A stretch of 64,000 nucleotides of DNA from an uncultured bacterium (GCA_902802585.1 CADCMR010000005.1:23022-87021), one strand, 5' to 3'; counted from the stretch's first letter, positions 3,820-44,558 are shown. The notes: a model not told the origin generated them from the sequence alone. Program-made: numbers and translations.

Positions 3820-5403
3820 GTGGTCCGGGTGTTTCGTCATAAATTGTCCTCCGCGGAATGGATGCTGCTCGCCGCGATCTTGGTCGGTGTGTCCATTTCG
3901 CTGACGCATCTGATCTTTTTCAACGGGATCGCCTACCGCGACACTGCGAACGTGTATGCTGCGATGTTGCGCTCGCTCGTGTCCGGCGCGTACTCCGACG
4001 CGTTTCACCCGTCGATTCCGTCGCTGAACGTGCTTTTTGCGCGAATCTTCACGTTGTGCGGCATGGAACCGGAGAGGGCGTTGTCGGCGGTGTCGTGCGT
4101 CTTCTTCGTCGCGACGATCCCGTTCGTGTATCTTCTGCTGAAACAGTTCCTGCCTGCCGAACCCGCGGCGTTCGGGGCGATGCTTTTCACCTGCGCGCCG
4201 AAGGCTATCCGTTTCTTGTGCGCCGGACTGCTGGATTCCGGCAAAGTCTTCTTCCTGGTCGCCGCCCTGTTTTTCTCGTGCCGCCTGGTCCGGGAGAAAT
4301 TCCGTGCGTTCGGAATGGCGGTCGGATTCGGTCTGGCGCTGGGCGGGCTGTCTCTCGTCCGGAGCGAGGGGATCGGCAACGCGTGCGTTTTGTTCGGCTT
4401 CACTGCGCTCTTCTGGCTGTGGGACGCGTGGCGGGAAAAACGAGTTCTTCCGGTCCTGCCTCTGCTGGCGACGGTCGCGACGTGGACGCTCGCCCTGTTA
4501 AGCCGCGCCTGGATCAACTGGCATTTCCGCGGGCGGTTCATTTACGACGGACGCCTTCATGACGGTCTGAGCCAGTTGTTCGGGGCGGTCCCGCATCCTT
4601 CGGAACCGTCAACTGTCCCCTTGGAGGAGCAGGAAAGCGCGCTGTCCGGCTGGCTGGAGCTGATCCGCAAGAACATCGTCGGGAACTATGAACTCTACTT
4701 CGGATTCGCGGTCGCGGGCATGGTCCTGCTGGTCCTCGCCGTTTACGGACGGCGCCGCTCCGCTTCCCATGCGCAGGCGTCCGGCGCGCACAACCTGACG
4801 GACTATTTGTGGCCGGGGCGTGCCGTACCGGATTATCTGAAATGGGATCCCTTTTTCCTGGTCCTGGTCGCGAGCGTGATATGCAACGCTTTGATCTTCA
4901 AACTGTCGCATCTCGATACATACCGTTATTTCCTGCTGAACATCCCGCTGTTCATGGTGTTTACGGTCATTACCTGCTGGTGGTTCTGGAGCTGGGCTGT
5001 GAAACTCCTGCCGCGTCCGCTCCTCGGAATCGCGCTCGCCGCGGTCGTTTTCGTCCTGGCGCTGCAGGTCCGCAACGGCGTCGACAATCTTTTTTCCGGG
5101 GATACGCGCATGCCGGTCCGGTCCGGGCTTGCTGTGGGCGAAATCATGCGCGCGGAAAAGCCGGACGGCAGGGTTTTCTTCTGGTACGCGTGCATCGAAT
5201 GGTATTACTCCGGAATGAAACGTGCGATCCCGATCGAAACGCCGCCTCCGGATTGCCGGACCTTTGCCGATTTCGATTTTTTCCTGGTACGCAAGGACGA
5301 GGACGAAATCCTGCCCGTCATTGAGGCGCGCACCGATCTGCGGGAGATGCCGCTTCCGCTGGAAAGCACCGTCCGTCTGTTCCGTAAAGTCGAGGAGGAA
5401 TGA
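3820..5403 (+). CDS. polytopic membrane protein, GT-C fold glycosyltransferase-like (ArnT/PMT family 39/83-like)
   Basis: 527-aa ORF with many hydrophobic helices. The first loop, YRDTANVY...HPSIPSL, resembles the GT-C acidic loop/HPPL region. GTG start at 3820, alternative ATG at 3862. A GtrB/ArnC-like GT2 gene follows directly. Confidence 0.6.
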   Translation: MVRVFRHKLSSAEWMLLAAILVGVSISLTHLIFFNGIAYRDTANVYAAMLRSLVSGAYSDAFHPSIPSLNVLFARIFTLCGMEPERALSAVSCVFFVATIPFVYLLLKQFLPAEPAAFGAMLFTCAPKAIRFLCAGLLDSGKVFFLVAALFFSCRLVREKFRAFGMAVGFGLALGGLSLVRSEGIGNACVLFGFTALFWLWDAWREKRVLPVLPLLATVATWTLALLSRAWINWHFRGRFIYDGRLHDGLSQLFGAVPHPSEPSTVPLEEQESALSGWLELIRKNIVGNYELYFGFAVAGMVLLVLAVYGRRRSASHAQASGAHNLTDYLWPGRAVPDYLKWDPFFLVLVASVICNALIFKLSHLDTYRYFLLNIPLFMVFTVITCWWFWSWAVKLLPRPLLGIALAAVVFVLALQVRNGVDNLFSGDTRMPVRSGLAVGEIMRAEKPDGRVFFWYACIEWYYSGMKRAIPIETPPPDCRTFADFDFFLVRKDEDEILPVIEARTDLREMPLPLESTVRLFRKVEEE

Positions 5404-5406
5404 TCC

Positions 5407-6300
5407 ATGGATTCATCGCTGACAATCGTCGTGCCGTGCTACAACGAGGCGGAAAACATTCCCGCCGTCTTCCCGCCGCTGCTGGCGTTCGCGAAGGAGC
5501 GCGGCTGGCGCGTGATCGCGGTGGACGACGGTTCGCGCGACGACACGCATAATCTGCTCCTGAAAATGCAGGAAGCCGCGCCGCATCTGGCGGTGCTCCG
5601 CCATAAGCTCAACCGGGGCTACGGCGCCGCCACCAAGACCGGACTCCGCGCCGTGGAGACGGAATACGCGATTACGATCGACGCGGACGGACAGCACCGC
5701 CTGGAGGACGTGGAGAAGTGTTTCCGCCGGATCGTGGAGACCGATGCCGACCTGGTGGTCGGCGAGCGCGTCAACAACGAATCCGGCGGCTACCGCACGC
5801 TCGGCAAGTGGGTGATCCGTTCGTTCGCCTCCATGCTGCTGAGCCTGCCTGTCCGCGACCTCAATTCCGGCATGAAATGCTACCGGATGGGCGAGGCGGT
5901 CTCGTATCTGGACCTCTGCCCGGACACGATGGCGTTCAGTGACGTGATCCTGCTCCTGATGGTGAACGACCGGAAACTGGTCTCCCGGACGGAGATCGAA
6001 GTCGCGCCCCGCCTCGCCGGGAAGAGCTCGATCGGCACGCGGACCGCGCTGGTCACGCTGGCGGAGATCCTGAACCTGGCGATCCTGCTGCGTCCGATGA
6101 CGACGTTCTTCCGGATCGCCCTGACGTTCGTCCTGCTCGGGCTGGCGTGGGGCGTGTTCATCTACTGCAAATCGCGGACGGTCACGTCGGCGTCGGTCAT
6201 GCTGATCATGCTCGGCGCGGTGAGCTTCATTCTCGGGCTGCTGGGCGAACAGCTGGCGCAGATCCGGAAAACCCTGGCGAGACGGAACCATGGTCGCTGA
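5407..6300 (+). CDS. GT2 polyprenyl-phosphate glycosyltransferase (GtrB/ArnC/DPM1-like)
   Basis: Motifs VVPCYNEAENI, AVDDGSRDDT and TIDADGQH (DxD), plus two C-terminal TM helices typical of bactoprenol-phosphate sugar synthases. Confidence 0.85.
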   Translation: MDSSLTIVVPCYNEAENIPAVFPPLLAFAKERGWRVIAVDDGSRDDTHNLLLKMQEAAPHLAVLRHKLNRGYGAATKTGLRAVETEYAITIDADGQHRLEDVEKCFRRIVETDADLVVGERVNNESGGYRTLGKWVIRSFASMLLSLPVRDLNSGMKCYRMGEAVSYLDLCPDTMAFSDVILLLMVNDRKLVSRTEIEVAPRLAGKSSIGTRTALVTLAEILNLAILLRPMTTFFRIALTFVLLGLAWGVFIYCKSRTVTSASVMLIMLGAVSFILGLLGEQLAQIRKTLARRNHGR

Positions 6301-7132
6301 CCGGGACACCGCACCAAACGTCGCAATGGTCATGCCGGTGTACAACGCCGGACGGTTCCTGCGCGAATGCCTGGATTCTGTTTTCGCCCAGACGTTCCGC
6401 GACTTCATCCTGATCGTGTGCGACGACGGCAGCAGCGACGAAAGCCCGCGGATTCTGGCGGAGTACGCTGCGCGCGACAGCCGCCTGCGGATCCTGACCA
6501 ACCATGAAAACCTCGGGATCCCGTTGACCCGCAACAAACTTCTGGCGGCGGTCCCGCCGGAATGCGAATATATTGCGATCATGGATTCGGACGACATCTG
6601 CAAGCCGGACCGGCTGGAACGGCAGTTGAAGTTCCTGTCGGACCACCCGGAGCTCTGCGGAGTCGGTTCGTCGCTGGAGATCATCGACGAATATTCGCGT
6701 ACGACCGGATTCCGCTGCTACCCCGTTTCGCCGGAGGAGATCCGCCTCACCATGCCGGACCGCAACGTCATTTCGCAGTCGTCGCTGATGCTGCGCCGCG
6801 CCGCGATCGAAAGCGTGGGCGGTTACCGGACCGGATTCGACTGCTGCGAGGACTACGACTGCTGGCTCCGGATGCTCGAACAATACGACTTCGCGAACCT
6901 GCCGGACCCGGTGCTGAAATACAGGATGTCGCCGGCGCAGTCCAAGCAGCGCAAACTCCGCCTCACACTCCGCAATACGTTGAGGATACAACGCGACTAC
7001 CGGACCCGTACGCATTCCTGGACATTCCGGTCGAGGCTGCGGGCGTTCGCCGGGCATGTCCTGCTCTGTCTGCCGCCGCCGCTGGTCCTGAAACTGTTCG
7101 AGCTGATGACCTACCGGAAGGAGCAGGCATGA
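6290..7132 (+). CDS. GT2 family glycosyltransferase
   Basis: Motifs VMPVYNAGRFL, CDDGSSDES and MDSDDI. The start overlaps the previous stop by 11 nt. Confidence 0.85.
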   Translation: MVADRDTAPNVAMVMPVYNAGRFLRECLDSVFAQTFRDFILIVCDDGSSDESPRILAEYAARDSRLRILTNHENLGIPLTRNKLLAAVPPECEYIAIMDSDDICKPDRLERQLKFLSDHPELCGVGSSLEIIDEYSRTTGFRCYPVSPEEIRLTMPDRNVISQSSLMLRRAAIESVGGYRTGFDCCEDYDCWLRMLEQYDFANLPDPVLKYRMSPAQSKQRKLRLTLRNTLRIQRDYRTRTHSWTFRSRLRAFAGHVLLCLPPPLVLKLFELMTYRKEQA

Positions 7133-9489
7133 ACGGTTTCCGGCGCTATTTCTTCGGTAACGCGGCGTTCTCGCTGTTCTGTTCGTTCGTCATCGGTATC
7201 TGCGCCTATCTGACGCGCCGCTTCACGTCGAACGGGCTGCCCGGAGACGAATACGCTTTCTTCTTCAGCACGTTTTCGCTTATCAGCATGATGGTCGCGT
7301 TCGCCTCGCTCGGGATCCCGAACGCGTCCTTTTTCCGCATTCCCGACGCCCGCAACCGCGGACAGGACGATGCCGCGCACGGCGTCTATGCCTGGTGCGT
7401 GCGCTGGGTTTTCCTTGTCGGGGCGTTTCTGACTGTGGTCGGACTGCCCGCGGTTCTGCTGGCGGGGGACAGCATGGAACGGTACGGGATCGAATCCCGG
7501 CGCATCTTCTGGCTGCTCCTGCTTCTTCCATTACCGCTGAGCGTTTTCACCGCCACCACGATGCTGCTCAACGGGATGAAGGAGTTCGTCGTGTCGAATC
7601 TGCTGATGATGTGGAACACCTTCACGATCCTCGTCGGGATCCTGCTCTTTCAGGCGAGATGCGGACTGGACGCCGTCATACTTGCCTATGTCGTCGGCGC
7701 ATGGTGCGCCGGACTCGGCGGCATCTGGTGGGCAAAACGGAAACACGGGTTCACGGTCCTGCATCCGATCGCGCCGGACGCCCGCGGACAGCTTGTAAAG
7801 GCGGGCGGCTGGCTGCTCCTGTCCTGCACGGGTTATTATTACTTCGCCGAGCTCGGCAACGTGATGCTGTCCTACCTCGGGACGCCGGAGGAGACGCAGA
7901 AATTCAACATCGCCCTGCCGATCGCCCTGATGATCCGCCCGCTGAACGCCATTTCCGAGGTTTTTGCCCCGGTTTCCAACCAGATGTTTCAGGACGGCGA
8001 CACCCGTGCGCTGCGGCGCTCCGTGTGGAACATGCTTGGCGTCACGGCGCTGATGATGGTCGGTGCGGGCGTCGTATTCGGATTCCTGGGGCGATGGATC
8101 GTGACGCTGCTTTTCGGCGAGGATTTCGCCGATGCCGCGCCCTGCACGCTGATCCTGATCGAAGGCGCGCTGCTCTGGAATGCGGCGCGGTTCTACGCCG
8201 ACATGCTGAACTCCATGCGCCGCGAACGCTTCGCTGCCCTGATCGCCGCCGGCCTGGCTGTCCTGAGTATAGTGCTGTACTGGATCTTCTGTTCTCATCT
8301 CGGTGCCGACGGTACGGCATGGGCGGCCCTGATCGCCAGCGCGGCCTGGCTTGCCGCGGTGCTGTTTTCGGTCCTGTTTGTCCTGGGCATGGATGCCGCG
8401 CGAAGGAAAACGCCCCGGAAGATTCTGCTCTTTCACTCCGGCTCCATCGGCGACACGCTCATCTCGTTCCCGATCCTGAACATCATCCGCGGGAAATGGC
8501 GGGACGCCGAAATCGTGCTGTTTTCCTACTCCGCGTATACCGGGCTGGCGTGCGTCCGGGAGCTTCTGGGGCCGTCGGGGCTGGTCGACCGGGTCTCCGG
8601 CTTCACGACTTCCGGGAACGTCGTCGGGATCGTTCTGCGCCTGTTCGCCTCGGTCGGGCAGGTGCGGCGCGAGCATTTCGACCTCGCGATCAACATCAAC
8701 CAGACCGCGCCGAAATTCTACGCTATACGAATGAAGATGTGGCGCGTATGGTGCCTGCTCGGCGGGATCAAGTCCTGGATGGGCGACAGATCGCTGTTCA
8801 TCTTCCCGGCGGTCCGCCCCGGCGCCCCTGTGCCAGCCGTGCCGCATCACATGGACATGATCGCAGCCCGGCTTGAGGCGTCCGGCATCAAGGTCCCGGA
8901 CCGCCGCATCGATCTGAACCTGACGGACGGGGAACGCCTTCATGCCCGGAGCGTATGGGAGGAGAAAGCCGCCTCGGCGGTCGGAGACCGGATTCCGGTG
9001 GCGGTCGGCGTCGGCGGGAAAAAACTGCGCTGGCCGGTCGAACGTTTTGAAGAGGTCATCCGCCGTATCGCCGGACATGGAATCGTTCCCGTGTTCTTCG
9101 GCGGACGGGAAAACATCCCCGAGATCGAAGGGATGATCGCCCGCCTCGGATTCGGGTTCAATGCCGCAAACGCCGGACTCAATTCCCTGCGCGAAACGGT
9201 CGCGTTCATGGAGAATTGCAAGTTCTACGTCGGCAACGATACCGGGACGCTTCATATGGCGGTCGCCGCCGGGCTGAAATGCATCGGCATCTACTCCGCG
9301 CACAATTATCCCGGCGCATGGAATCCGTACGGCGAAGGACATATCGTCCTGCGGCACGATCCACCCTGCGCCGTGTGTCTCGCCACCGTCTGCCCGAAGG
9401 GACGGCCCGTGTGCATCGAGGACATCACCGTGGACGAGGTCGAGTTCGCCGTGAAACAGATGCTCCGGCATCTCGAAGAACAGAAGTGA
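7129..9489 (+). CDS. fusion protein: Wzx/MOP-type polysaccharide flippase (N-terminal, about 12 TM) plus GT9 heptosyltransferase-like domain (C-terminal)
   Basis: The ATG at 7129 overlaps the upstream stop (ATGA). The N-terminal ~440 aa are polytopic and Polysacc_synt-like. The C-terminal part has ILLFHSGSIGDTL and GNDTGTLHMAVAAG motifs typical of GT9. The track ORF from 6562 is an out-of-context upstream extension. Confidence 0.8.
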   Translation: MNGFRRYFFGNAAFSLFCSFVIGICAYLTRRFTSNGLPGDEYAFFFSTFSLISMMVAFASLGIPNASFFRIPDARNRGQDDAAHGVYAWCVRWVFLVGAFLTVVGLPAVLLAGDSMERYGIESRRIFWLLLLLPLPLSVFTATTMLLNGMKEFVVSNLLMMWNTFTILVGILLFQARCGLDAVILAYVVGAWCAGLGGIWWAKRKHGFTVLHPIAPDARGQLVKAGGWLLLSCTGYYYFAELGNVMLSYLGTPEETQKFNIALPIALMIRPLNAISEVFAPVSNQMFQDGDTRALRRSVWNMLGVTALMMVGAGVVFGFLGRWIVTLLFGEDFADAAPCTLILIEGALLWNAARFYADMLNSMRRERFAALIAAGLAVLSIVLYWIFCSHLGADGTAWAALIASAAWLAAVLFSVLFVLGMDAARRKTPRKILLFHSGSIGDTLISFPILNIIRGKWRDAEIVLFSYSAYTGLACVRELLGPSGLVDRVSGFTTSGNVVGIVLRLFASVGQVRREHFDLAININQTAPKFYAIRMKMWRVWCLLGGIKSWMGDRSLFIFPAVRPGAPVPAVPHHMDMIAARLEASGIKVPDRRIDLNLTDGERLHARSVWEEKAASAVGDRIPVAVGVGGKKLRWPVERFEEVIRRIAGHGIVPVFFGGRENIPEIEGMIARLGFGFNAANAGLNSLRETVAFMENCKFYVGNDTGTLHMAVAAGLKCIGIYSAHNYPGAWNPYGEGHIVLRHDPPCAVCLATVCPKGRPVCIEDITVDEVEFAVKQMLRHLEEQK

Positions 9490-9630: not shown

Positions 9631-9984
9631 ATGAACATGGAAAAGCTGGAGAATCGGGGGGGTGTCCGCGGGAAAAAGCGTTTTTCTTCGCGAATCCGGC
9701 GGATTTTTTCCCTCAATCACAACCTGAAGAATGACGACGAAGCGCGGAGCAGTATTGCGCGTGCTGCCGAGCTTGGCGTTATCAATTCCTGCGACATTCT
9801 TCCGGTCTATCGTGAGTTCAAAAAGCCCTCGCACGAGGAGTTCGCAGAGCCGACCCGCTGGTCGCTGATGAACGCCCTGACGGAAACCGTCAAAAAGTAT
9901 TCACCTCAGCGCGTGGATCACAGCTACCTCGCGTTGAACCGTGCTTTTGGTCTGGACGGTCGTCCCGCCGAAATCTTCGCCTGA
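9631..9984 (+). CDS. hypothetical protein (117 aa), no domain recognised
   Basis: ORF lies in a lower-GC islet with its own promoter. It has a basic N-terminus. Confidence 0.5.
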   Translation: MNMEKLENRGGVRGKKRFSSRIRRIFSLNHNLKNDDEARSSIARAAELGVINSCDILPVYREFKKPSHEEFAEPTRWSLMNALTETVKKYSPQRVDHSYLALNRAFGLDGRPAEIFA

Positions 9985-13734: not shown

Positions 13735-14580
13735 ATGATCTTAGCTGACATCGAACCCGCAGTCCTGGCCGTTTATATCGTGATGGCGGTGGGATTTATT
13801 GTAATGGTCTGGGGAATCAAGAACCTGAGCACGAAATCCAACGCCCGCATCATCATGGGGCTCGGCGCGCTCATCGTGTTCGGGGCCGTCGGCGCCAGCT
13901 TCTTCGTGTCCGGTGAAAAATCCGAGGACGCCCGTCTTGAAAAGAACGCCCGGATCTTCCGGACAGCGAAGGCGGAAAAGGCCGCCTCCTACATCGCGGA
14001 ACGGTTCCCGGACGGCGGCAGCGCCGCCTTTATCATCGACGACGAGTCCAACAGCAATTCCGCGTCTGAAAACTATATCGTCCTCCAGGAGCTTCAGAAC
14101 CGCCTTTCCGAAAAGGGCGTTTCCTGCGGCGACGTGATCATCGTGGGCGAGCTTACCACCGACAAGAAGACCGGCGAGGAAGTGCGTGAAGAGCCCACGG
14201 ATGCCGCGATCATGAAGAAAAAACTGGACCAGGTCTACGACAAGGTCGACATCGTCGTCAATTTCGCGGGTCTTCCCAGCTCCACCTCCGAACTCAAGAA
14301 GATCACGTTCCTCACGAAAAAGAACACCGCCAGCGGCAAGAACAACATGCTGCTCATGTGCGACAATGGTCTGCCCTACGTCGAGCAGGACATGCTGAAG
14401 AACGGTCGCGTGTGCGCCATCATCGACTACATCAGCGACGCCGGGTCCTCGTTTGACATGCAGAAGAACTCCGCGCCGAAGGATCTTTCCGTGGCGTTCG
14501 ATTTCTTCTACTACCTCATCTGTCCGGACACGCTCGAAAGCTATATCTCGAACAACGAGAACTACTTTATCACGAAATAA
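13735..14580 (+). CDS. membrane-anchored hypothetical protein (two N-terminal TM helices plus soluble domain)
   Basis: 281-aa ORF with typical coding composition. No motif recognised. Confidence 0.6.
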   Translation: MILADIEPAVLAVYIVMAVGFIVMVWGIKNLSTKSNARIIMGLGALIVFGAVGASFFVSGEKSEDARLEKNARIFRTAKAEKAASYIAERFPDGGSAAFIIDDESNSNSASENYIVLQELQNRLSEKGVSCGDVIIVGELTTDKKTGEEVREEPTDAAIMKKKLDQVYDKVDIVVNFAGLPSSTSELKKITFLTKKNTASGKNNMLLMCDNGLPYVEQDMLKNGRVCAIIDYISDAGSSFDMQKNSAPKDLSVAFDFFYYLICPDTLESYISNNENYFITK

Positions 14581-21913: not shown

Positions 21914-22903
21914 TCACGGGGTTGGCTGCTGTTCGGGCTGGCCGTTCAGCAGGACGTCGCCGACTTCGAGGCGGGCGCCGTTCAGGAAATCGGCGACGGG
22001 CATTTCCTTTTTTCCTTCGGGCACGATGCGGTCGAGCAGCAGGGAACCGGAGCCGCAGGACACCATGATCCTGTTGTCGGCGAGCGCAGTGATCTTCCCC
22101 GGTTCCGCACCGGCGGCTTTGAAGGATGTGTACGACGCTTTCGTGATCTTGACCGACATGACGCGTCCGCGCACCATGACGCGGAATGACATCGACGGCC
22201 AGTTATGGTAAGCCCTCACCTTTCGTTCCAGGACGGCGGCGTCTTCGTTCCATTCGACGAACCCGTCCGATTTTCGGATTTTGACCGCCACGGTGACCCC
22301 TTCGGGGGGCTGCGGACACGGCGTGATTTCGCCGCGCGCGATGCGGCCTACGCAGTCGCAGATGCGGCTCCCCGCCATCGCGGCGAGCGAGCGTTCCAGC
22401 TCGTCCGCGTTGATCCCGGGCGGGACGGGCATCCGGTGCATCTCGTAGATCGGTCCCGAGTCCAGTCCCCGCTCCATCCGCATAAACGTTACTCCGGTCA
22501 TTTCGTCTCCGTTCAATACGCAGGTGGTGATGGGCGACGCCCCGCGGTATTTCGGGAGAAGGGACGCATGGACGTTCAGGCAGCCGAGCGGCGGGAGATT
22601 CAGGATCGGTTCCCGCAGGATCTGTCCGAACGACACCACCACGATCATGTCCGGCTCCAGCCGTCTCGCATGCTCCAGAAACTCCGGAGTGTTCACGGAC
22701 TGAACGCGCTCGCACGGGATTCCCGCCTCGTCCGCATACCGTCCGAGCGGACTCGGCGTGAGGATGCGTTTGCGTCCTGCCTCGCGGTCCGGCTGGGTCA
22801 CGGCAACAGCGAGCGTGAGGTCATGGCTGTTCGCCAGGGCCTCCAGGATCGGGATGGCGAAAACGCCGGCTCCCATGAACAAAATGCGCGGGTTGCTTAT
22901 CAT
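21914..22903 (-). CDS. fmt: methionyl-tRNA formyltransferase
   Basis: ILFMGAG, SFGQIL and HASLLPKYRGASPI motifs. ATG at 22903; the track ORF begins 4 codons earlier at a GTG. Confidence 0.92.
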   Translation of the reverse strand: MISNPRILFMGAGVFAIPILEALANSHDLTLAVAVTQPDREAGRKRILTPSPLGRYADEAGIPCERVQSVNTPEFLEHARRLEPDMIVVVSFGQILREPILNLPPLGCLNVHASLLPKYRGASPITTCVLNGDEMTGVTFMRMERGLDSGPIYEMHRMPVPPGINADELERSLAAMAGSRICDCVGRIARGEITPCPQPPEGVTVAVKIRKSDGFVEWNEDAAVLERKVRAYHNWPSMSFRVMVRGRVMSVKITKASYTSFKAAGAEPGKITALADNRIMVSCGSGSLLLDRIVPEGKKEMPVADFLNGARLEVGDVLLNGQPEQQPTP

Positions 22904-23061
22904 GATGTCTTTCACGTCCGAAAAAAATTTTAAACTTTAATATATCATAGAACCGCGCCATTTTCAAATGCTATTTGCTGAAAAAACATGCAAAGACAAG
23001 TCTTCTCCCCCCGTGCGCAAGCGAAGCTGAGCGCACTACTGCAGTCCAGGGCTTGCCCTGG

Positions 23062-24735
23062 TTATTCCGCCTGCGTTTCAGGCGCGGCTGCGGCGGTTTC
23101 GGGCAGGATCACGCGCATGGAGACGTGGAACAGTTTTGGGGTGCCGCGCAGTTTCTGATACCATGCCGGGACGGCGCGCGGAATCTGCATTTCATGGAGT
23201 TCGCCGAGCTTATTCTCCGGGATCGACTTCATGTAATCGAAAAGGCTCTGTTCGTCGGTCTTCTCGTCCCAGATCAGGACGCCGCCGCGTTTCATGATGT
23301 CGTCCGGGGCGATCCACTGGCTCTGCGTGACGTCGGCGTCGAAGAATGCTTCCGGCGCTTCGGGTGAGTACACCGCCACGTTGCACGAGCCCTTGCGGTC
23401 GGAGATCACGTATGGCATCGGCTGGTCCGAGACTTCATGCCATAATGCGGTCGCCGCCGCGGTCACGGCGTGTCCGGGGTAGTTCTCGTAGTCGCAGCCG
23501 CGTTTCTTGTAGCCCTGGTGTTCCAGCGACCTGATCACGAAGATCACGCCGAAGATGAATCCCATCAGCAGGATGGCGCTCAGGTAGAAATTCGCCTTGA
23601 TCCGCGTGATACGCGGCGACCAGACCATGAAGAGCCATACGCCCATGAACGGGAAGCACGGCACAACCCACGAATAGTTGATCTTGCCGCCGGTCACGAG
23701 CGAGAAGAGCAGCGCCGAGCCGAACGAGCCCCAGCAGCAGGACCACACGAACGCCTTGTCGAACGCGGAGTATTGCGGGCGGTCGGCGCGTTTGCGTCGC
23801 CACGGGAAGAACAGCGCGAAGAAGATGACCGCCACGCCGAACACCTGTGAAGCGCGATCCAGCGCTTTCAGCGGGCGCGTGAAATGGTCCGAAAGCGCTA
23901 CTGCCTCGCCTTCCGACAGCGCCGCGCGGCCCGCCGCGTACTGGAACGGCTTGAAGTCGTTGGAGACCAGCCAGAGGATGTTCGGCAGGACCACGAGGAT
24001 GAACGGGATCGCCGCCAGGTAGAACTGCGGCTTGCGGAAGACGGCGCGGCCTTCCTTCGTGAACAGCAGCGGGATGATCAGGCACACGTACATCGCCGGC
24101 GCGAAATACTTCACCATCATGGCGAGCCCGGCGAAGAATCCGGCGCACAGCCAGTACAGCCAGCCGTATTTCCGATCGCCTTTCACGCCGAGGTAGAAAA
24201 ACAGCATGGTCAGAGGCCAAACCGCCAGCTCCATCACGTCGTCGCACAGTTCCGCCGCCTTGATGCCGTAGAAATTGATGAGCAGGAGCGTGGCGGCGGC
24301 GAGGAACGCCGTGCGGAGCGGCAGGATGCGTTTCGCCACCTGGAACACGCAGAAGATGCCCGTGAACACGCAGACCTGGCTCGCGAGGAAGCTCGAGAAG
24401 AACGCTTTTCCGCTCAGATACCACACAGCCGCGCCGAAGAAAGGTCCGGCGTACGGATTCTTGTCGAATCCGAACTGGAAATGGCGGCCCCACACGATGT
24501 TTTCCAGCACGTCGATGAAGTCGTTCGCGAGCGAGATGCACGGCAGCACGGTCCAGAAGACCAGCCAGCCGGACAGGATGATGAGGAGGATGCGCGTGAA
24601 GTTCACGCCGTCCGCGCCGTGGTCATCTTCATCGTCGAAAAGATAGTGGCGGAAGAAACTGACGATCGGGTTCGTCTTCTGCGTTTCCGCGGAGGACGCG
24701 GTTTTATCCGGTTGTGCTGTCTGCTCGTTGTTCAT
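23062..24735 (-). CDS. GT-C fold glycosyltransferase, family 39/83-like (ArnT/PMT-like)
   Basis: Polytopic, 557 aa. The first periplasmic loop DVLENIVWGRHFQFGFDKNPYAGPF resembles the ArnT/PMT DE...PPL loop. Confidence 0.75.
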   Translation of the reverse strand: MNNEQTAQPDKTASSAETQKTNPIVSFFRHYLFDDEDDHGADGVNFTRILLIILSGWLVFWTVLPCISLANDFIDVLENIVWGRHFQFGFDKNPYAGPFFGAAVWYLSGKAFFSSFLASQVCVFTGIFCVFQVAKRILPLRTAFLAAATLLLINFYGIKAAELCDDVMELAVWPLTMLFFYLGVKGDRKYGWLYWLCAGFFAGLAMMVKYFAPAMYVCLIIPLLFTKEGRAVFRKPQFYLAAIPFILVVLPNILWLVSNDFKPFQYAAGRAALSEGEAVALSDHFTRPLKALDRASQVFGVAVIFFALFFPWRRKRADRPQYSAFDKAFVWSCCWGSFGSALLFSLVTGGKINYSWVVPCFPFMGVWLFMVWSPRITRIKANFYLSAILLMGFIFGVIFVIRSLEHQGYKKRGCDYENYPGHAVTAAATALWHEVSDQPMPYVISDRKGSCNVAVYSPEAPEAFFDADVTQSQWIAPDDIMKRGGVLIWDEKTDEQSLFDYMKSIPENKLGELHEMQIPRAVPAWYQKLRGTPKLFHVSMRVILPETAAAAPETQAE

Positions 24736-39153: not shown

Positions 39154-39960
39154 ATGGGGCTGGGTTTGAACGGCTCGAAATCAACGGAACGGGAAAAGAT
39201 TAAAGCTCCCGGGAAGGGGTTTCGCATGTTCGGTCCGGATATTTCCCCTGGCATGGACGAACTGCCGTTCCTGTCCGGATCGTTTTCCTCTCATGCCAAA
39301 ACGTATGCGAAGCTCCGTACATGTGCTATCAAGCGCATCCGCGTTCTTTCCGTGGACGGGAGCCCCGTTATCAAGCGATGGCTGGATATTTTCGGCAGTT
39401 TATTCGCGATTGTTCTGTTGCTGCCAGTATTCCTGGTTGTCGCGGTCTGGCTGAAACTTGATTCGCCGGGACCGCTCATATATCGGCAGATTCGCATCGG
39501 GCTGCACGGCCGCCCGTTTTATTTTTACAAATTCCGCTCCATGTACATCGACTCCGATGCTCGGCGGGCGGCGCTGCTGCAGGCGAACGAATCCAAGGAC
39601 GGCGTGATTTTCAAGATGAAAAACGATCCCCGCATCACGAGGTGCGGTCGGTTCATCCGGAAATACAGCATTGATGAATTCCCCCAGTTTTTCAATGTCC
39701 TGCTTGGCGACATGAGCCTGGTCGGGCCGCGTCCGCCTCTTCCGTCCGAGGTGGCTCAGTATTCGCTCGACGACTGGAAGCGGCTTGCCATTCTGCCGGG
39801 CATCACCTGCATCTGGCAGATTTCCGGGCGCAGCGACATCCCGTTCCGGGAACAGGTCGTGCTCGACAAGGAATACATACGGGGGCAGGGCTTCTGGAAG
39901 GACGTGCTGATCCTGTTCAAGACCATTCCGGCGGTCCTTGCCGGGAAAGGGGCGTACTGA
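39154..39960 (+). CDS. phosphoglycosyl transferase (bacterial sugar transferase, WbaP/PglC-type, initiating enzyme)
   Basis: Motifs GPLIYRQIRIG, YKFRSM, SIDEFPQFFNVLLGDMSLVGPRPP and PGITCIWQISGRSD. GGAGG ribosome-binding site 7 nt before the ATG at 39154; later in-frame ATGs at 39226 and 39253 are possible. Confidence 0.88.
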   Translation: MGLGLNGSKSTEREKIKAPGKGFRMFGPDISPGMDELPFLSGSFSSHAKTYAKLRTCAIKRIRVLSVDGSPVIKRWLDIFGSLFAIVLLLPVFLVVAVWLKLDSPGPLIYRQIRIGLHGRPFYFYKFRSMYIDSDARRAALLQANESKDGVIFKMKNDPRITRCGRFIRKYSIDEFPQFFNVLLGDMSLVGPRPPLPSEVAQYSLDDWKRLAILPGITCIWQISGRSDIPFREQVVLDKEYIRGQGFWKDVLILFKTIPAVLAGKGAY

Positions 39961-39961
39961 A

Positions 39962-41380
39962 ATGATGAAAGCGCTGCTTTTCTGCCCTGTCCATGGCAAC
40001 GCCGAACTGAAACGCTATTTCCCCGGCTATCCGGTCTACCTGCTTCCGTTCGCGAACAAACCGGCGATTGAGTTTGAGCTTGATTTCTGTTTCCTGAGCG
40101 GGATACGGGATGTCCTGATCGTGTCAGACGAGGAATCCGAGATCCTGCGCACGCAGTACCGGAGCGGCGAAACGCTCGGGTTGAACATCCGTTGTGAAGG
40201 AACCGGCCCTTCCATTCCACTGAAGCGGATCATCCAGCGGAACAAATCGTTTTTCTGCGGATGCGACCTTCTGGTTTTCTCCGGGCTTTTCCTGCCGGAA
40301 TACGACAAGCGGAATCCGCATGAGCTGAATATCGGCGCGGATGAAGTGAAGGGGTGTTCCTACGGCGGGGCGGCCTGGTACCTGATCGGACGCGACCGGC
40401 TGGACGAGCTCCCGGACGACTGGAGCGGATTCCGCGACGAAGCGCCGGTGAACGGTTTCGCGGTTCCCGGCATCCGCGATTACTACAGGCACAACATGCG
40501 TCTTGCCGGAAGCGACATAGAGAAATACAACCTGCCCGGTTTCAGTGAGGGGAAGAACAGTTTCGTGGGGCGCGACGTGCGGATTCCCGGAACGGCGCGC
40601 GTGAGGCCGCCTGTGATCCTCGGGAACGGGATCCAGTTCGGACGCGGCGTCCATGCCGGACCGAACATCATCGTGGGCGACAACTGCGTGATCGACAACG
40701 GAACGGCGATCAGGAATTCGATCGTCCTGGGCAACACGTATGTCGGCAGGAACCTTGAAATCGAAGGGAAAGTGTGCAGCGGGAACCGCATGGTTGATCC
40801 TGAATCCGGGATCGTGATCAATGTCGTGAACGAATCCGTCCTGTCCGAAATCGAACCGGATGAATACGGCAGGTGTCCGCTGTATCAGCGCGCACTGGCA
40901 TGTCTTCTTCTTTTTCTCCAGACGCTGCCGTATGTTCTGCTCCGGCCGTTCCTGGAACACCACTCCACGCTTGTGGAGTGCATGCTTGAAAACGGGGCGA
41001 GGCGCACGATGTCCTTGAACGCGTATGTGCTGCCCCGGAGGAGTGCCGCGGGAAGGCTGTTCCGCAGGCTGACGCTGAACAAGTATCATCTGCTGCCGTA
41101 TGCGGCGGCGGGGAAGGTGCGCCTTGTCGGGAACTGTCTGCTGGAAGCGAACGAACGGAACGAGGCGTTTGTCGGGAACCTGCCCGGCTATGCTCCCGGC
41201 ATTTTTTCCTACAGCGAATTTCTCGGCCATGAAAATGAGCCGTATCAACTTGAACTCGACGAGCAGTACTATGCGTATGCCATGAACTGCTGGTTCAACA
41301 TCAAAATACTGACGGGGATTCTGCGGCGCAATTTCAGAGCGGAAGGGCGTCCGTTGCAGCAGAGAGGAGTTATGGAATGA
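39962..41380 (+). CDS. three-part fusion: degenerate nucleotidyltransferase-like domain, left-handed beta-helix (hexapeptide) domain, catalytically degenerate sugar-transferase (PGT-like) domain
   Basis: The N-terminus aligns with the NTP_transferase fold (LLPFANKPAIEF...IRDVLIV) but GGxGTRL is replaced by PVHGNAEL. Hexapeptide repeats span VILGNGIQFGRGVHAGPNIIVGDNCVIDNGTAIRNSIVLGNTYVG. The C-terminus aligns with the PGT core (KVRLVGNCLL, PGYAPGIFSY, WFNIKILTGIL) but lacks KFRxM and the Asp-Glu dyad (LNKYHLLP versus SIDEFPQ). Confidence 0.75.
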   Translation: MMKALLFCPVHGNAELKRYFPGYPVYLLPFANKPAIEFELDFCFLSGIRDVLIVSDEESEILRTQYRSGETLGLNIRCEGTGPSIPLKRIIQRNKSFFCGCDLLVFSGLFLPEYDKRNPHELNIGADEVKGCSYGGAAWYLIGRDRLDELPDDWSGFRDEAPVNGFAVPGIRDYYRHNMRLAGSDIEKYNLPGFSEGKNSFVGRDVRIPGTARVRPPVILGNGIQFGRGVHAGPNIIVGDNCVIDNGTAIRNSIVLGNTYVGRNLEIEGKVCSGNRMVDPESGIVINVVNESVLSEIEPDEYGRCPLYQRALACLLLFLQTLPYVLLRPFLEHHSTLVECMLENGARRTMSLNAYVLPRRSAAGRLFRRLTLNKYHLLPYAAAGKVRLVGNCLLEANERNEAFVGNLPGYAPGIFSYSEFLGHENEPYQLELDEQYYAYAMNCWFNIKILTGILRRNFRAEGRPLQQRGVME

Positions 41381-43473
41381 TTTTATCTGATAACGGCACT
41401 ATTGACGTTCCGGTTCCGGCGTCCGCATCCGGGACGGAAGGCATGGGGCAGGATGCGAACTTGCCTGCCATTTTCCGGTTTTTACGTCTGTTCAAACGCG
41501 ACCTCTGGTGCTGGCTCAACGCCTTGCAGAAAATGTGGTGGCTTTTCCTCATTTTCCCGTTCCTTTTCGCCATCGGCCTGTTCATGGTCCGGACGATGAC
41601 GACGACGAACGTGTATGTGGCGAACTGCGGAATGATCCGCCAGTCGATTTCTGACACACACCACGAGGTTCTTCCGCCCGGGTATGTGAACATCCAGAAG
41701 TCCGTCATCATGACGCTGTTCAAGAGCCGTGCCGTGCTGGAGGAGACCGTGAAACGTCTCAGCCTTCCCTACACAGCGGAACAGCTTTTCCGCAACATCG
41801 ACGTCAAATCGGAAAAGAATTCGGACTATTACTATGTGTCCGCATCGTCCAAGGACCCGACGATCGCCGCCACGCTTGCCAATACGCTTGCCGACGTGTT
41901 CATCGAGGAATACAAGAAACTGATCCGGAAGAACCTTGAGGATCTGAACGACAGTTATGTCCGGACCCAGAATGACTTGGAAAAACAGATTGAGGAACAG
42001 GGCGAAAAATTGAAAGACCTGTGCGCCGAGAACAATCTGACGATGATCGAGAGCGATATTGCGTTCAACAATCAGCGGCTGCTCCAGGTCGAAGACCGGT
42101 TGACGCAAGCCGCATCCACCCTGGATTCCGCGAAACAGGCGTTGTATGAACTGCAGGGTGAGCTTGCCAACACGCAGGAAAACGTTGTGACGCACAGGGA
42201 AAAAAGCACTGTCGTGGAGGACAACCTCAGGCAGGAAGAATCCGTATTGGCAAGGTATGAAGAAGTTTATGCGAGGAACAATCCCATCCTGATTCAACAG
42301 CGTGAGGTCGTTAGAAAGTTAAGGGCTGAAGTTGAGAAAAGTCAGCAGGAGGATGAGACGTCGGAGAATGAACTGGACAGGAAAATCATCATTTCCCGAA
42401 ATCCCGCCTATACTCAAATTCTGGTCTCCATTGCCGCAAGGAAAGCCGAGATTTCGTCTTTGACGAACGATATCAAGCTCAACAATGAAATCGCGGTTCA
42501 GCTGCGTGCCAGACGCGAGCTGCTGGCATCGATCCAGCCGGTCATCCGGCAGATGGAGATGGACCTCGCGCAGTACAAGGAACAGCTCAATAAAAACAAG
42601 CTTCAGATTGCCACAATCCGCAACTTCCTGGACCGTTCCTTTTCCGACATATCCATTCAGGAACTGGCGAAGCCCCCGAACAGACCGCTGGGACGCAAAC
42701 GCAGCGTCTGGGGGATCATCGGTTTCATTCTGGGAACGTTCATCTCGCTCTCGATCATTTTCGGGTGCGAACTCTTCAACCTGACGGTTCGTTCCAGCAT
42801 CGATATCGAACAGGCGCTCCAGATCAAGGCGTTGGGGCTGATTCCGGTCCTGGACCAGGCTCACCGTGCCAATTACTACAGCGCCCTTCAGACGATTCTA
42901 AGCAACGGGGAAGAGTATTTCTCCAAGTTGTCGCCGGACCATCCCCTTCTGGTCGTGTTCGCTCCGAACAAGCGCGCTGACCTGGACGGGAAGATCCGGG
43001 AGGAGTTCTGTGAGACTTTGAAGATCCGCCTCGGGTGCAAGTACGTCGTGATTTCGCCGCTGGTCGGGGAAGAGGAAGCTCCGTCGAATCAGACTCCGGT
43101 ATTGATCAACGATTACCTGTATCAGTTCACCGATGAAGCGCCGAAGCCGGACAAGGATCACTGCGTCTACTTCAAACTGGATGACCTTTCATTCATTTCG
43201 CCTCTGACCGGCGACCAGATCCAGCGTATCAAGACGGCATACAAGTCCGTCTCCCTGATCGTGTGGGACCTTTTCGATTTTGAGCTGCACCGCCAGCTGT
43301 TTGCTGAAATCGCCCACAATGCCGACCTGACGATTATTCCGATGAAATATGCGCAGACTTCAAAACTGAGCATCTACAGGATCCTTCAGTTCCTGAAGGC
43401 GTTCCATGTCAACAATGTCGTCGGATTCCTCTACAACATCAACAACAAGCACTACAGCAAGGCGAGTTTATGA
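41377..43473 (+). CDS. polysaccharide co-polymerase (Wzz/GumC/Wzc-like, PCP-2a architecture) with degenerate C-terminal kinase-like domain
   Basis: ATGA overlap with the upstream gene. Two TM helices flank a long coiled-coil periplasmic region. The C-terminal ~230 aa have a MinD/BY-kinase-like layout (LLVVFAP..., SLIVWDLFD, ADLTIIPM..VVGFLYN) but no GxxGxGK[ST] Walker A and no Tyr cluster. Confidence 0.75.
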   Translation: MILSDNGTIDVPVPASASGTEGMGQDANLPAIFRFLRLFKRDLWCWLNALQKMWWLFLIFPFLFAIGLFMVRTMTTTNVYVANCGMIRQSISDTHHEVLPPGYVNIQKSVIMTLFKSRAVLEETVKRLSLPYTAEQLFRNIDVKSEKNSDYYYVSASSKDPTIAATLANTLADVFIEEYKKLIRKNLEDLNDSYVRTQNDLEKQIEEQGEKLKDLCAENNLTMIESDIAFNNQRLLQVEDRLTQAASTLDSAKQALYELQGELANTQENVVTHREKSTVVEDNLRQEESVLARYEEVYARNNPILIQQREVVRKLRAEVEKSQQEDETSENELDRKIIISRNPAYTQILVSIAARKAEISSLTNDIKLNNEIAVQLRARRELLASIQPVIRQMEMDLAQYKEQLNKNKLQIATIRNFLDRSFSDISIQELAKPPNRPLGRKRSVWGIIGFILGTFISLSIIFGCELFNLTVRSSIDIEQALQIKALGLIPVLDQAHRANYYSALQTILSNGEEYFSKLSPDHPLLVVFAPNKRADLDGKIREEFCETLKIRLGCKYVVISPLVGEEEAPSNQTPVLINDYLYQFTDEAPKPDKDHCVYFKLDDLSFISPLTGDQIQRIKTAYKSVSLIVWDLFDFELHRQLFAEIAHNADLTIIPMKYAQTSKLSIYRILQFLKAFHVNNVVGFLYNINNKHYSKASL

Positions 43474-44528
43474 TTTCCAAATTCCATCATCGGTTGGCGC
43501 TTTCCCTTCTGTCCGTTCTTTCTCTTGTCGCAACCTCCTGCAACAATACGCCGTTTGGAGGCATTGCCATTCCCGGAATGACGTCCGTTGTCCCGAGGCA
43601 GGACAAAGATTCCTATTCGATTCAGGAAGAACTGAAAGCTCTTCATGTGGTGAATCCTGTTCCATACGAAATCCGTCCCGGCGACCAGTTCCAGATGTCG
43701 GTGTACAATCAGCCTTCTCTTACAACCGGTATCCTGGTCGCTCCTGACGGAACGGTCAGTCTGCCGCTGGTCGGAATCGTCAAGCTTTCCGGGATGAATT
43801 TGGAGGATGCCACAGAACTGGTCGAAGAGAAACTTTCCAAGTATCTGAAATCTCCGATTGTCACATTGGCTCCCCAGGCTGTGAGCGGTTTCTATTTCAC
43901 GATCGCAGGACGTGTCAATAAGCCCGGCAACTATTCCGTTTCGGTCGGACAGACCCATCTTCTTGATGCGATTTCCCTTGCCTCCGGGTTTGCGACGGGG
44001 CAGTTCCACGGCGATACCGTGGAGCTTGCCGACCTTGACAATGCCTATGTCAAACGGAACGGCAAACAGTTGCCCGTGGATTTCAAGAAGGTGGTTTACG
44101 AAGGGGACGACCTGAACAACATTCCCCTCATGAACGGGGATTACATCTATGTGCCGTCCACCATGAGCGGATATATTATTTTCCTGGGTGAAGTCGGAAG
44201 CAATACCTATGTCGGGTTTACCGAAGGGATGACGCTTCTGCAGGGATTGTCCTATGTGAATGGATTGAAGACGGAAACGTACAGTTCGAATGTCCGCGTC
44301 ATCCGCGGCGGCATGAACAATACGGTCGTCTACACGGTCAACGTTGACAAGATTCTGAATGGAAAAATGAAGGATTTCGCCTTGAATGCGAATGATATCA
44401 TTTATGTCCCGCAGGATGGATTCTCCAAATGGAACACCATGATCCGGAAAATGCTGCCGACCCTTCAGCTTGTCAACCTTCTCGCCGGACCGTTCGGATC
44501 GACCATTCTCGGGTATTTCAGCCTCTGA
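43470..44528 (+). CDS. wza: polysaccharide export outer-membrane lipoprotein (Wza-like; Poly_export plus SLBB domains)
   Basis: ATGA overlap. Lipobox LVATSCNN. Motifs IRPGDQFQMSVY, PDGTVSLPLVG and GRVNKPGNY. Confidence 0.88.
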   Translation: MISKFHHRLALSLLSVLSLVATSCNNTPFGGIAIPGMTSVVPRQDKDSYSIQEELKALHVVNPVPYEIRPGDQFQMSVYNQPSLTTGILVAPDGTVSLPLVGIVKLSGMNLEDATELVEEKLSKYLKSPIVTLAPQAVSGFYFTIAGRVNKPGNYSVSVGQTHLLDAISLASGFATGQFHGDTVELADLDNAYVKRNGKQLPVDFKKVVYEGDDLNNIPLMNGDYIYVPSTMSGYIIFLGEVGSNTYVGFTEGMTLLQGLSYVNGLKTETYSSNVRVIRGGMNNTVVYTVNVDKILNGKMKDFALNANDIIYVPQDGFSKWNTMIRKMLPTLQLVNLLAGPFGSTILGYFSL

Positions 44529-44558
44529 CGCATTCTCTCCCCCGGAACTGGTGCGGAT

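Follow-up and report, generated by a model that had tools for sequence, protein, structure and literature searches.

How flippases of the Wzx/MOP type avoid exporting unfinished lipid-linked glycans is a question on which one gene in a 64,000-nucleotide stretch of DNA from an uncultured bacterium (GCA_902802585.1, CADCMR010000005.1:23022-87021) bears. In this gene a Wzx-type flippase runs without interruption into a glycosyltransferase (GT) of family GT9. By the Rosetta-stone argument, a GT and a flippase that are covalently joined in nature indicate that the flippase acts alongside the last GT. We call the whole 64,000-nucleotide stretch the window and count positions from its first letter. 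We found that the single Wzx::GT9 polypeptide is real and conserved, and that each of its domains comes from a known family (PST/Wzx and GT9). The protein is, by prediction, bifunctional and located in the inner membrane, and its source is an uncultured Lentisphaeria/Victivallales bacterium of the rumen; the hosts of the fusion relatives are rumen and gut metagenome-assembled genomes (MAGs) of Lentisphaeria and Victivallales. The gene has the following features, with amino acids (aa) numbered along the fused protein.

7116-7132, plus strand: translational-coupling junction, read directly from the sequence, with GGAAGGAG at 7116-7123, ATG at 7129-7131 and TGA at 7130-7132.
7129-9489, plus strand: Wzx::GT9 fusion gene, 786 aa plus stop, assigned from Pfam, homologues, an AlphaFold2 model and Foldseek.
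7129-8391, plus strand: flippase domain, aa 1-421, PST/Wzx family of the MOP superfamily, assigned from hydropathy and charge, Pfam PF13440 and Foldseek.
8392-8421, plus strand: basic linker DAARRKTPRK, aa 422-431, from transmembrane segment (TM) 12 to strand beta-1 of the GT9 domain, placed by alignment; site of the in-frame GT9 insertion or deletion.
8422-9486, plus strand: GT9 domain of GT-B fold, aa 432-786, assigned from Pfam PF01075, profile alignments and standalone relatives.
8440-8457, plus strand: GSIGDT motif, aa 438-443, aligned to WaaC SSMGD; D442 is the equivalent of WaaC Asp13.
9232-9255, plus strand: GNDTGTLH motif, aa 702-709, aligned to WaaC VDTGLSH; D704 and H709 correspond to Asp261 and His266 of WaaC.
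9367-9414, plus strand: Cys4 cluster C747-x2-C750-x4-C755-x6-C762 (CAVCLATVCPKGRPVC), aa 747-762, with invariant cysteines.

The frame at 7129-9489 runs through 786 codons without an internal stop. Its ATG overlaps the TGA of an upstream 280-aa gene of family GT2 in an ATGA arrangement, with the Shine-Dalgarno-like GGAAGGAG ahead of it, and the same 4-nt overlap is seen in the related loci L007, L008, L009, L011, L013 and L015. The frame is open upstream to 6562, and the Met at 7129 is the start in all homologues. An earlier description of this DNA, made from its sequence alone (the sequence-only reading), had proposed a single 786-aa open reading frame (ORF) with an ATGA-coupled start, which translation and direct reading of the sequence bear out. 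The motifs it quoted are exact (GSIGDTL, aa 438-444; GNDTGTLHMA, aa 702-711; CAVCLATVCPKGRPVC, aa 747-762), and its division into a flippase of ~440 aa and a GT9 of ~340 aa holds for the domains but not for their lengths, which are ~421 and ~355 aa.

Relatives were sought among 5.8 billion proteins, with fused and unfused forms counted as 90%-identity clusters. The fused form makes up 14 clusters (778-804 aa, 45-100% identity) and standalone flippases (432-440 aa) make up 16, the latter 65-81% identical to the N-terminal half and ending at the domain boundary. When 1.84 billion representatives at 50% identity were scanned exhaustively with HMMER, only one full-length fused representative emerged, P0022; the other strong matches were standalone GT9s, standalone flippases and GT9s fused to other enzymes. 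Standalone GT9s (~350-380 aa) are 29-41% identical over aa 430-780 in full-length matches.

These data bear on whether the fusion could be an artefact in which adjacent genes were merged by assembly or by a sequencing frameshift. A point in favour of such an origin is the one-base difference at the junction of a related MAG (L018), which separates both ORFs. Against it stand the identical 786-aa protein on five or more contigs, built by different assemblers from three or more samples (ERZ28613049, ERZ1029116, Logan ERR3201418), the 14 fused clusters down to 45% identity, none of them with a stop, a GT9 half that has no preceding start codon bearing a ribosome-binding site, and purifying selection on both halves. 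The junction DNA of contig L004 is identical to that of the window, and the agreement of independent assemblies takes the place of the read-level look at the junction that the sequence-only reading had asked for. Since an identical protein is found on separately assembled contigs, the fused junction is no artefact, and this explanation is effectively refuted.

Other GT fusions were also found. Members of the GT9 subfamily to which the window domain belongs are fused to asparagine-synthase-like (AsnB-like), GT4, acyltransferase-3, PGA_cap and sulfotransferase domains (P0045, P0133, P0145, P0163, P0092, P0170, P0150, P0108, P0112 and P0125), and this Cys4-bearing subfamily is unusually prone to fusion. 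A second Wzx plus GT9 family (P0031 and P0185-P0188; 1007-1094 aa, Polysacc_synt N-terminal and Glyco_transf_9 C-terminal) was auto-named 'ADP-heptose:LPS heptosyltransferase/O-antigen/teichoic acid export membrane protein' by JGI. It has the same domain order and a polysaccharide-biosynthesis context, but its inter-domain region is far longer, its identity to the window protein is 26% over 45% of the query, and it is located in Wzi/Wzc/Wza capsule loci; it is probably an independent fusion event. P0174 (701 aa) is a GT2::Wzx fusion with the GT N-terminal and a flippase part ~30% identical to the window flippase. Fusions of cytoplasmic GTs to flippases of the Wzx type thus recur (the P0031 family and P0174). 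As a separate observation, P0174 mirrors the ATGA-coupled GT2 and Wzx gene pair of the window.

On the domain-architecture check that the sequence-only reading had proposed, the sequence searches gave fused relatives in 14 clusters as well as a second, unrelated Polysacc_synt plus Glyco_transf_9 family. Full-text literature searches turned up no account of a Wzx-GT fusion occurring in nature; one match (PMC3412221) was set aside, being owed to reporter fusions only. The earlier remark that the architecture was not recognised as a described one appears to hold for publications, but the architecture is not unique, and JGI auto-annotates the second family with both functions. The architecture is visible in databases and apparently unstudied.

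The N-terminal half has 12 hydrophobic segments, from aa 8-28 through aa 396-420 (hydropathy and charge map). In the predicted topology of the window protein, the cytoplasmic side carries 22 Lys and Arg residues and the periplasmic side 7 (16 inside versus 1 outside in the C-terminal half of the flippase), and the corresponding counts across 30 relatives are 18-24 and 5-9. A basic tail, RRKTPRK, follows TM12. Polysacc_synt_3 (PF13440) matches aa 157-338 with 23.8 bits versus a cut-off of 23, while Polysacc_synt (PF01943) is above cut-off in the fused orthologue P0022 (33.3 versus 28.2) and is a precomputed match for most relatives. An AlphaFold2 model was built from 30 homologues (mean predicted local distance difference test score, pLDDT, 83.4; predicted template-modelling score, pTM, 0.73). 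In a Foldseek search with this model, the N-terminal half matched the E. coli lipid III flippase WzxE (PDB 9g9o) with a TM-score of 0.81 over about 424 columns, and also MATE transporters and the lipid II flippase MurJ. MurJ identity was rejected on three grounds: a TIGR01695 score of 22.3 bits versus a cut-off of 235.55, 12 TMs rather than 14, and a TM-score of 0.6-0.7, below that of WzxE or MATE.

WzxE has 12 TM helices, and the C-terminus of Wzx(O157) is described as cytoplasmic and arginine-rich (PMC11706664). The window protein resembles WzxE and the PST family in its 12 TM helices, two lobes, Polysacc_synt/Polysacc_synt_3 match, basic tail after TM12 and glycan-assembly operon; it differs in bearing a covalent 355-aa cytoplasmic GT and in its ~15% identity to WzxE. 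The topology check named in the sequence-only reading came out as that reading expected, with 12 TM segments and the charge bias given above placing the GT9 domain, by prediction, in the cytoplasm. The GT2::Wzx fusion P0174 implies that the N-terminus of the flippase is cytoplasmic too. The putative function of this half is to translocate an oligosaccharide linked to polyprenyl (pyro)phosphate, and the operon context (GT2s and a GT-C enzyme, see below) supports such a substrate.

In the C-terminal half, strand beta-1 and the Gly-loop (KILLFHSGSIGDT) come directly after the linker. Glyco_transf_9 (PF01075) matches aa 632-756 with 57.1 bits versus 22 (E = 2e-15). A profile built from the domain together with standalone relatives could be aligned over the whole length of 3tov (E = 1.6e-33), WaaF (1psw, E = 7e-22) and WaaC (2gt1, E = 2e-9), and Foldseek likewise matches this half to the GT9 structures 3tov, 1psw and WaaC. 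In WaaC, Asp13 is the catalytic base, and Asp261 and His266 bind hydroxyls of the donor sugar, heptose (bioRxiv 10.1101/2021.06.16.448588). Their equivalents D442, D704 and H709 are invariant in the 14 fused proteins and in 26 GT9-domain relatives. The equivalent of Lys192, a donor contact in WaaC, is Leu633 (within KK-LRWP). The active site of the GT9 half appears intact, and we predict that the domain is catalytically competent.

The replacement of Lys192 by the non-conserved Leu633, and the lack of donor-sugar genes nearby, would fit a GT9 domain that is catalytically dead and instead helps the flippase, from the cytoplasm, to recognise its substrate or to gate transport. We consider this very improbable, since the catalytic-base Asp and the DTG...H residues do not vary in any fused or standalone relative, the Lys column varies across the whole subfamily, standalone enzymes included, and the ratio of nonsynonymous to synonymous substitution rates (dN/dS) is as low as in the flippase half.

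Compared with WaaC, WaaF and the Veillonella GT9 protein 3tov, the window GT9 keeps the GT-B fold end to end and the D13/D261/H266 equivalents, but it lacks an equivalent of Lys192, has an extra invariant Cys4 cluster and is tethered to a transporter; its context, unlike that of WaaC and WaaF, is no lipopolysaccharide (LPS)-core locus. Assignment to the heptosyltransferase I/II/III equivalogs (WaaC/WaaF/WaaQ) was rejected, as the NCBIfam scores are far under the cut-offs (TIGR02195, 47 versus 134.6; TIGR02193, 29.7 versus 185.3; TIGR02201, 16.2 versus 170.2). ADP-heptose genes of the GmhA, HldE and GmhB type were not found within the 64-kb window. Hence, 'heptosyltransferase-like', the term used in the sequence-only reading, is apt at the level of the family and not at that of the equivalog.

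The Cys-rich motif, which that reading had listed among the GT9 signatures, is a trait of the subfamily only. None of the four Cys varies among the fused proteins or the standalone subfamily members, and no counterpart is present in the solved GT9 structures compared (3tov, WaaF and WaaC). The region 748-761 has a pLDDT below 50 in the metal-free model, and the cluster is a probable structural metal site. TibC, a WaaC-related enzyme of GT-B fold, carries an iron-finger of four Cys inserted in its C-lobe (PMC4358343). By alignment offset only, the window cluster may lie roughly at the place of the TibC finger cysteines (Cys339/342/358/370), and the two proteins would then share a WaaC-related GT-B fold with a four-Cys C-lobe finger, the alignment being weak. 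Membership in the TibC/BAHT group was rejected: the match to TibC (4rap) has E = 1, and the Cys spacing differs (C-x2-C-x15-C-x11-C in TibC versus C-x2-C-x4-C-x6-C in the window GT9). TibC has an N-terminal beta-barrel, is dodecameric and glycosylates a protein, whereas the window protein has no beta-barrel, because its GT9 starts directly after TM12.

Have the two halves evolved as one protein? Flippase and GT9 distances among the fused proteins are correlated with r = 0.95, with mean identities of 69% and 67%, and dN/dS is 0.125-0.25 for the N-terminal half and 0.15-0.27 for the C-terminal half (five comparisons). Both halves are thus inherited together under similar purifying selection. The linker of ~10 residues, its basic character and the domain order are kept down to 45% identity.

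The flippase tree has P0022 at its base, followed by an all-fused clade (100% bootstrap), with the unfused forms nested among the fused ones. Monophyly of the unfused forms was recovered in 0/300 bootstraps, which rules out a single GT9 loss, and fused P0005-7 form a clade with unfused P0025-29 at 100%. With fused forms basal and unfused forms nested, the fusion is ancestral in the group, and GT9 has been lost at least two times. One of the losses can be seen in two loci with common gene order on both sides and 89% DNA identity, in which the whole GT9 is present or absent in frame (L009, 7284-8394, fused, 1111 bp; L011, 7272-7287, unfused, 16 bp). The flippase tail RDENDLTH is retained after GT9 in L009, and short AG(E)NA repeats lie at both edges of the GT9 segment, suggesting deletion or insertion by microhomology. 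Fission, with GT9 kept as a separate gene in unfused genomes, was rejected, the best full-length standalone GT9 being no more than 41% identical. The gene after the unfused flippase begins 10 nt past the flippase stop. As there is no close standalone GT9, the domain was lost and not split off, with L018 the sole possible exception. In that MAG (Lentisphaeria bacterium RGIG10120, JAGCTY010000010.1, 7240-7340, equivalent to window 8385-8391) one base is deleted in a GGG run that corresponds to GGG 8385-8387 of the window, 3 nt ahead of the Met421 codon and just upstream of the linker. The deletion breaks the gene exactly where the domains meet, leaving a Wzx ORF of 443 aa and, overlapping it, a GT9 ORF of 366 aa (starting MDAARKKPPRR), and could represent natural fission, a pseudogene or an error of the MAG consensus.

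No flippase residue perfectly separates fused from unfused forms, and the only partial correlates are positions 16 and 17 in TM1 (7174-7179). L16/F17 prevails among the fused proteins, and each of the 15 unfused relatives combines S17 with I, M or L at position 16. This pattern, shared by polyphyletic unfused forms, could reflect adaptation of the flippase to its substrate or recombination at the 5' end.

One explanation on which this history bears is that the flippase only anchors GT9, which would act on a different membrane acceptor, such as lipid A-core or some other glycolipid, and would pass no product to the flippase. The many unrelated partners of the GT9 subfamily suggest opportunistic fusions between enzymes of the same pathway, and GT9 can be deleted while the flippase gene persists. 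However, the domain order and the short basic linker are kept down to 45% identity, both domains co-diverge, and the pTM of the two-domain model weakly hints at a defined inter-domain arrangement. We regard anchoring alone as unlikely.

What, then, would the fused protein handle? Wzx::GT9 is the last, translationally coupled gene of a tightly packed four-gene operon. The three genes upstream of it are as follows.

3820-5403, plus strand: putative polytopic GT-C of PMT_2/ArnT type, first gene of the operon, 527 aa, assigned from Pfam PMT_2 and orthologue annotation.
5407-6300, plus strand: GT2 polyprenyl-monophosphate glycosyltransferase of ArnC/GtrB/AglJ/DPMS type, 297 aa, assigned from Pfam Glycos_transf_2, with C-terminal TM helices.
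6290-7132, plus strand: second GT2, EpsE/TuaG/WcaA type, 280 aa, assigned from Pfam and NCBIfam, overlapping both neighbours.

The GT-C gene starts at GTG 3820; gene callers on identical contigs use 3862, giving 513 aa. Its PMT_2 score of 25.6 bits is just under the 26.1 cut-off, its orthologues are annotated as PMT_2, and a PDB sequence search gave no match. The 297-aa GT2 aligns over its full length (aa 5-290) to ArnC (9bhc, 8vxh) and to GtrB sll0501 (5ekp), and also to the NCBIfam models AglJ, ArnC, PgfS and PpgS, all under the equivalog cut-offs. The 280-aa GT2 overlaps the upstream gene by 11 nt and the downstream gene by ATGA; no fused context is without it, some unfused contexts have it too, and L001-3 do not. 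The order PMT_2, GtrB-like, (GT2), Wzx, with overlapping or near-abutting genes, is kept in every G1-G3 context examined. Four states of the operon were seen.

State A: GT-C, GtrB-like, Wzx (L001-3).
State B: GT-C, GtrB-like, GT2, Wzx (L011-14).
State C: GT-C, GtrB-like, GT2, Wzx::GT9 (the window, L004-6, L008-10 and L015-16).
State D: GT2, Wzx::GT9, GT4, sulfatase (L007, the context of P0022).

Neither a phosphoglycosyl transferase (PGT) nor a small flippase of the GtrA or ArnE/F type is present in the window operon, and the sole flippase candidate is the 12-TM Wzx-type domain. The operon resembles the Gtr, Arn and Csb systems (GtrA/GtrB/GtrC; ArnC/ArnEF/ArnT; CsbB/GtcA/YfhO) in joining a GtrB/ArnC-type GT2, a putative GT-C and a flippase, and the L001-3 relatives hold exactly these three. 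It differs in that the flippase is a 12-TM MOP/Wzx protein rather than a small GtrA or ArnE/F, and in that up to two extra cytoplasmic GTs (GT2 and GT9) are inserted in operons of the window type, so an oligosaccharide is implied rather than a monosaccharide. Unlike WzxE and other PST proteins, the window flippase is partnered by a GtrB/ArnC-like GT and a GT-C instead of a PGT/Wzy/Wzz set.

We suggest, with a probability of about 0.55, that Wzx::GT9 ends an operon for a lipid-linked glycan, in which the cytoplasmic GT9 would extend the glycan, the flippase would flip it and the GT-C would transfer it, and that the fusion favours completion first. The GtrB-like enzyme would load a sugar onto polyprenyl phosphate, and the 280-aa GT2, followed by the GT9 domain, would extend the lipid-linked sugar on the cytoplasmic face. 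The acceptor-binding N-lobe of GT9 would be tethered at the membrane surface beside the cytoplasmic mouth of the flippase, whose domain would translocate the finished lipid-linked oligosaccharide, and the GT-C would then transfer the oligosaccharide to a periplasmic acceptor. The covalent link would concentrate the GT locally at the flippase, such that incomplete intermediates are finished before flipping (substrate channelling). Such 'finish-then-flip' channelling is plausible, though unproven.

Several observations weigh against this reading. Flippases 65-81% identical to that of the window work without GT9, which argues against tight coupling and against strict recognition of the GT9 sugar. 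Nor is the fusion bound to the GT-C/GtrB system, since the P0022 context (GT2, Wzx::GT9, GT4, sulfatase) has no GtrB-like or GT-C gene and the P0031 family belongs to classical Wzi/Wzc/Wza capsule loci. Extending a sugar linked to undecaprenyl monophosphate (Und-P) is unusual in bacteria, and the products of ArnC/GtrB are normally flipped as monosaccharides. The window protein's own Polysacc_synt_3 match is marginal (23.8 versus 23). Finally, in the DSSP assignment of the model TM5/6 and TM11/12 each appear as one long helix, and the count of 12 TMs therefore rests on hydropathy, charge bias and the superposition on WzxE.

A precedent for the proposed pathway logic is known from archaea. In Haloferax volcanii, AglJ charges polyprenyl monophosphate and further GTs (AglG and others) extend the product, and the Wzx-like AglR is implicated in flipping the Dol-P-sugar used by the membrane transferase AglS (PMC3871713). 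The window GT2s match the AglJ and AglG models weakly, with no orthology implied; the archaeal system differs in its dolichol carrier and in having neither a GT-flippase fusion nor a GT9. For Wzx/MOP flippases, specificity has been discussed as a checkpoint and, more speculatively, so has metabolic channelling between GT and flippase, the latter with regard to pneumococcal capsule flippases (PMC11759038).

The main rival to a GT-C-dependent pathway is that Wzx::GT9 and the 280-aa GT2 serve a Wzx/Wzy exopolysaccharide (EPS) pathway with units linked to undecaprenyl pyrophosphate (Und-PP), whose remaining genes lie elsewhere, while the GtrB-like enzyme and the GT-C form a separate decoration system. 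A candidate for the remaining genes is found further along the window.

39154-45953, plus strand: partial EPS locus of lower GC content, with a WbaP-type PGT, a nucleotidyl/hexapeptide (acetyl)transferase, a 698-aa chain-length determinant, Wza and Wzy_C.

The GC content of this island is 49-56%, versus ~60% for the rest. No flippase or glycosyltransferase gene was found in 39154-45953, which counts in favour of this rival, as does the likeness of the 280-aa GT2 to EpsE, TuaG and WcaA, enzymes whose acceptors are Und-PP-linked units. The P0022 context, with a GT4 in place of GtrB and GT-C, and the capsule clusters of the independent P0031 family point the same way. Conversely, the PMT_2, GtrB-like, (GT2), Wzx order is tightly packed in every G1-G3 context, and in L001-3 the flippase is the sole partner of the GtrB-like enzyme and the GT-C, with no flippase of the GtrA type; the island is 30 kb off and of different GC content. 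We consider this pathway the strongest competitor and, on balance, somewhat unlikely.

The sequence-only reading had GT9 perform the last cytoplasmic transfer and couple completion of the glycan to its translocation. Both proposals stay interpretation, and as a requirement the coupling does not hold: the flippases of close relatives lack GT9, so coupling is dispensable for flippase work. We suggest that it would be an optimisation and a variable module rather than an obligatory or new transport mechanism. A much more specific version of the proposed sequence appears doubtful to us: GT9 would dock on the inward-open flippase, add the last sugar to an oligosaccharide linked to polyprenyl monophosphate, by a logic like that of the archaeal Agl pathway at work in a bacterium, and hand the product into the cavity, so that completion gates translocation and the GT-C transfers the glycan en bloc, while recurrent in-frame loss of GT9 or GT2 would be a domain-level switch that shortens the surface glycan under phage or host pressure.

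Other genes of the window were noted in passing. A second PMT_2-type GT-C (23065-24735, minus strand, 557 aa, 80.7 bits) adjoins a formyltransferase-like gene (21917-22915). Downstream of the operon, conserved hypothetical ORFs at 9631-9984 (plus strand, 117 aa) and 13735-14580 (plus strand, 281 aa) flank a rhaA/rhaB rhamnose-catabolism pair. Neither ORF has a Pfam or NCBIfam match, and the 117-aa one is also called on the independent contigs L004-L006.

The lineage supplies its own controls for the question of how flippases and GTs are coordinated. The L009 and L011 operons are near-isogenic with and without GT9 (89% nucleotide identity), and further natural controls are operons with one, two and three cytoplasmic GTs and, possibly, the split L018 gene. 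This natural series with and without GT9 makes the coupling question testable by heterologous expression. For the bacteria that carry it, the pattern of presence and absence suggests that the fusion serves strain-level variation of a surface glycan as a module that can be gained or lost, and is no obligatory part of the flippase mechanism; the series of operons with one, two or three GTs likewise suggests strain-level variation in glycan length. Overall, the operon suggests that a MOP-type flippase can serve periplasmic glycosylation of the GtrB/GT-C type in bacteria.

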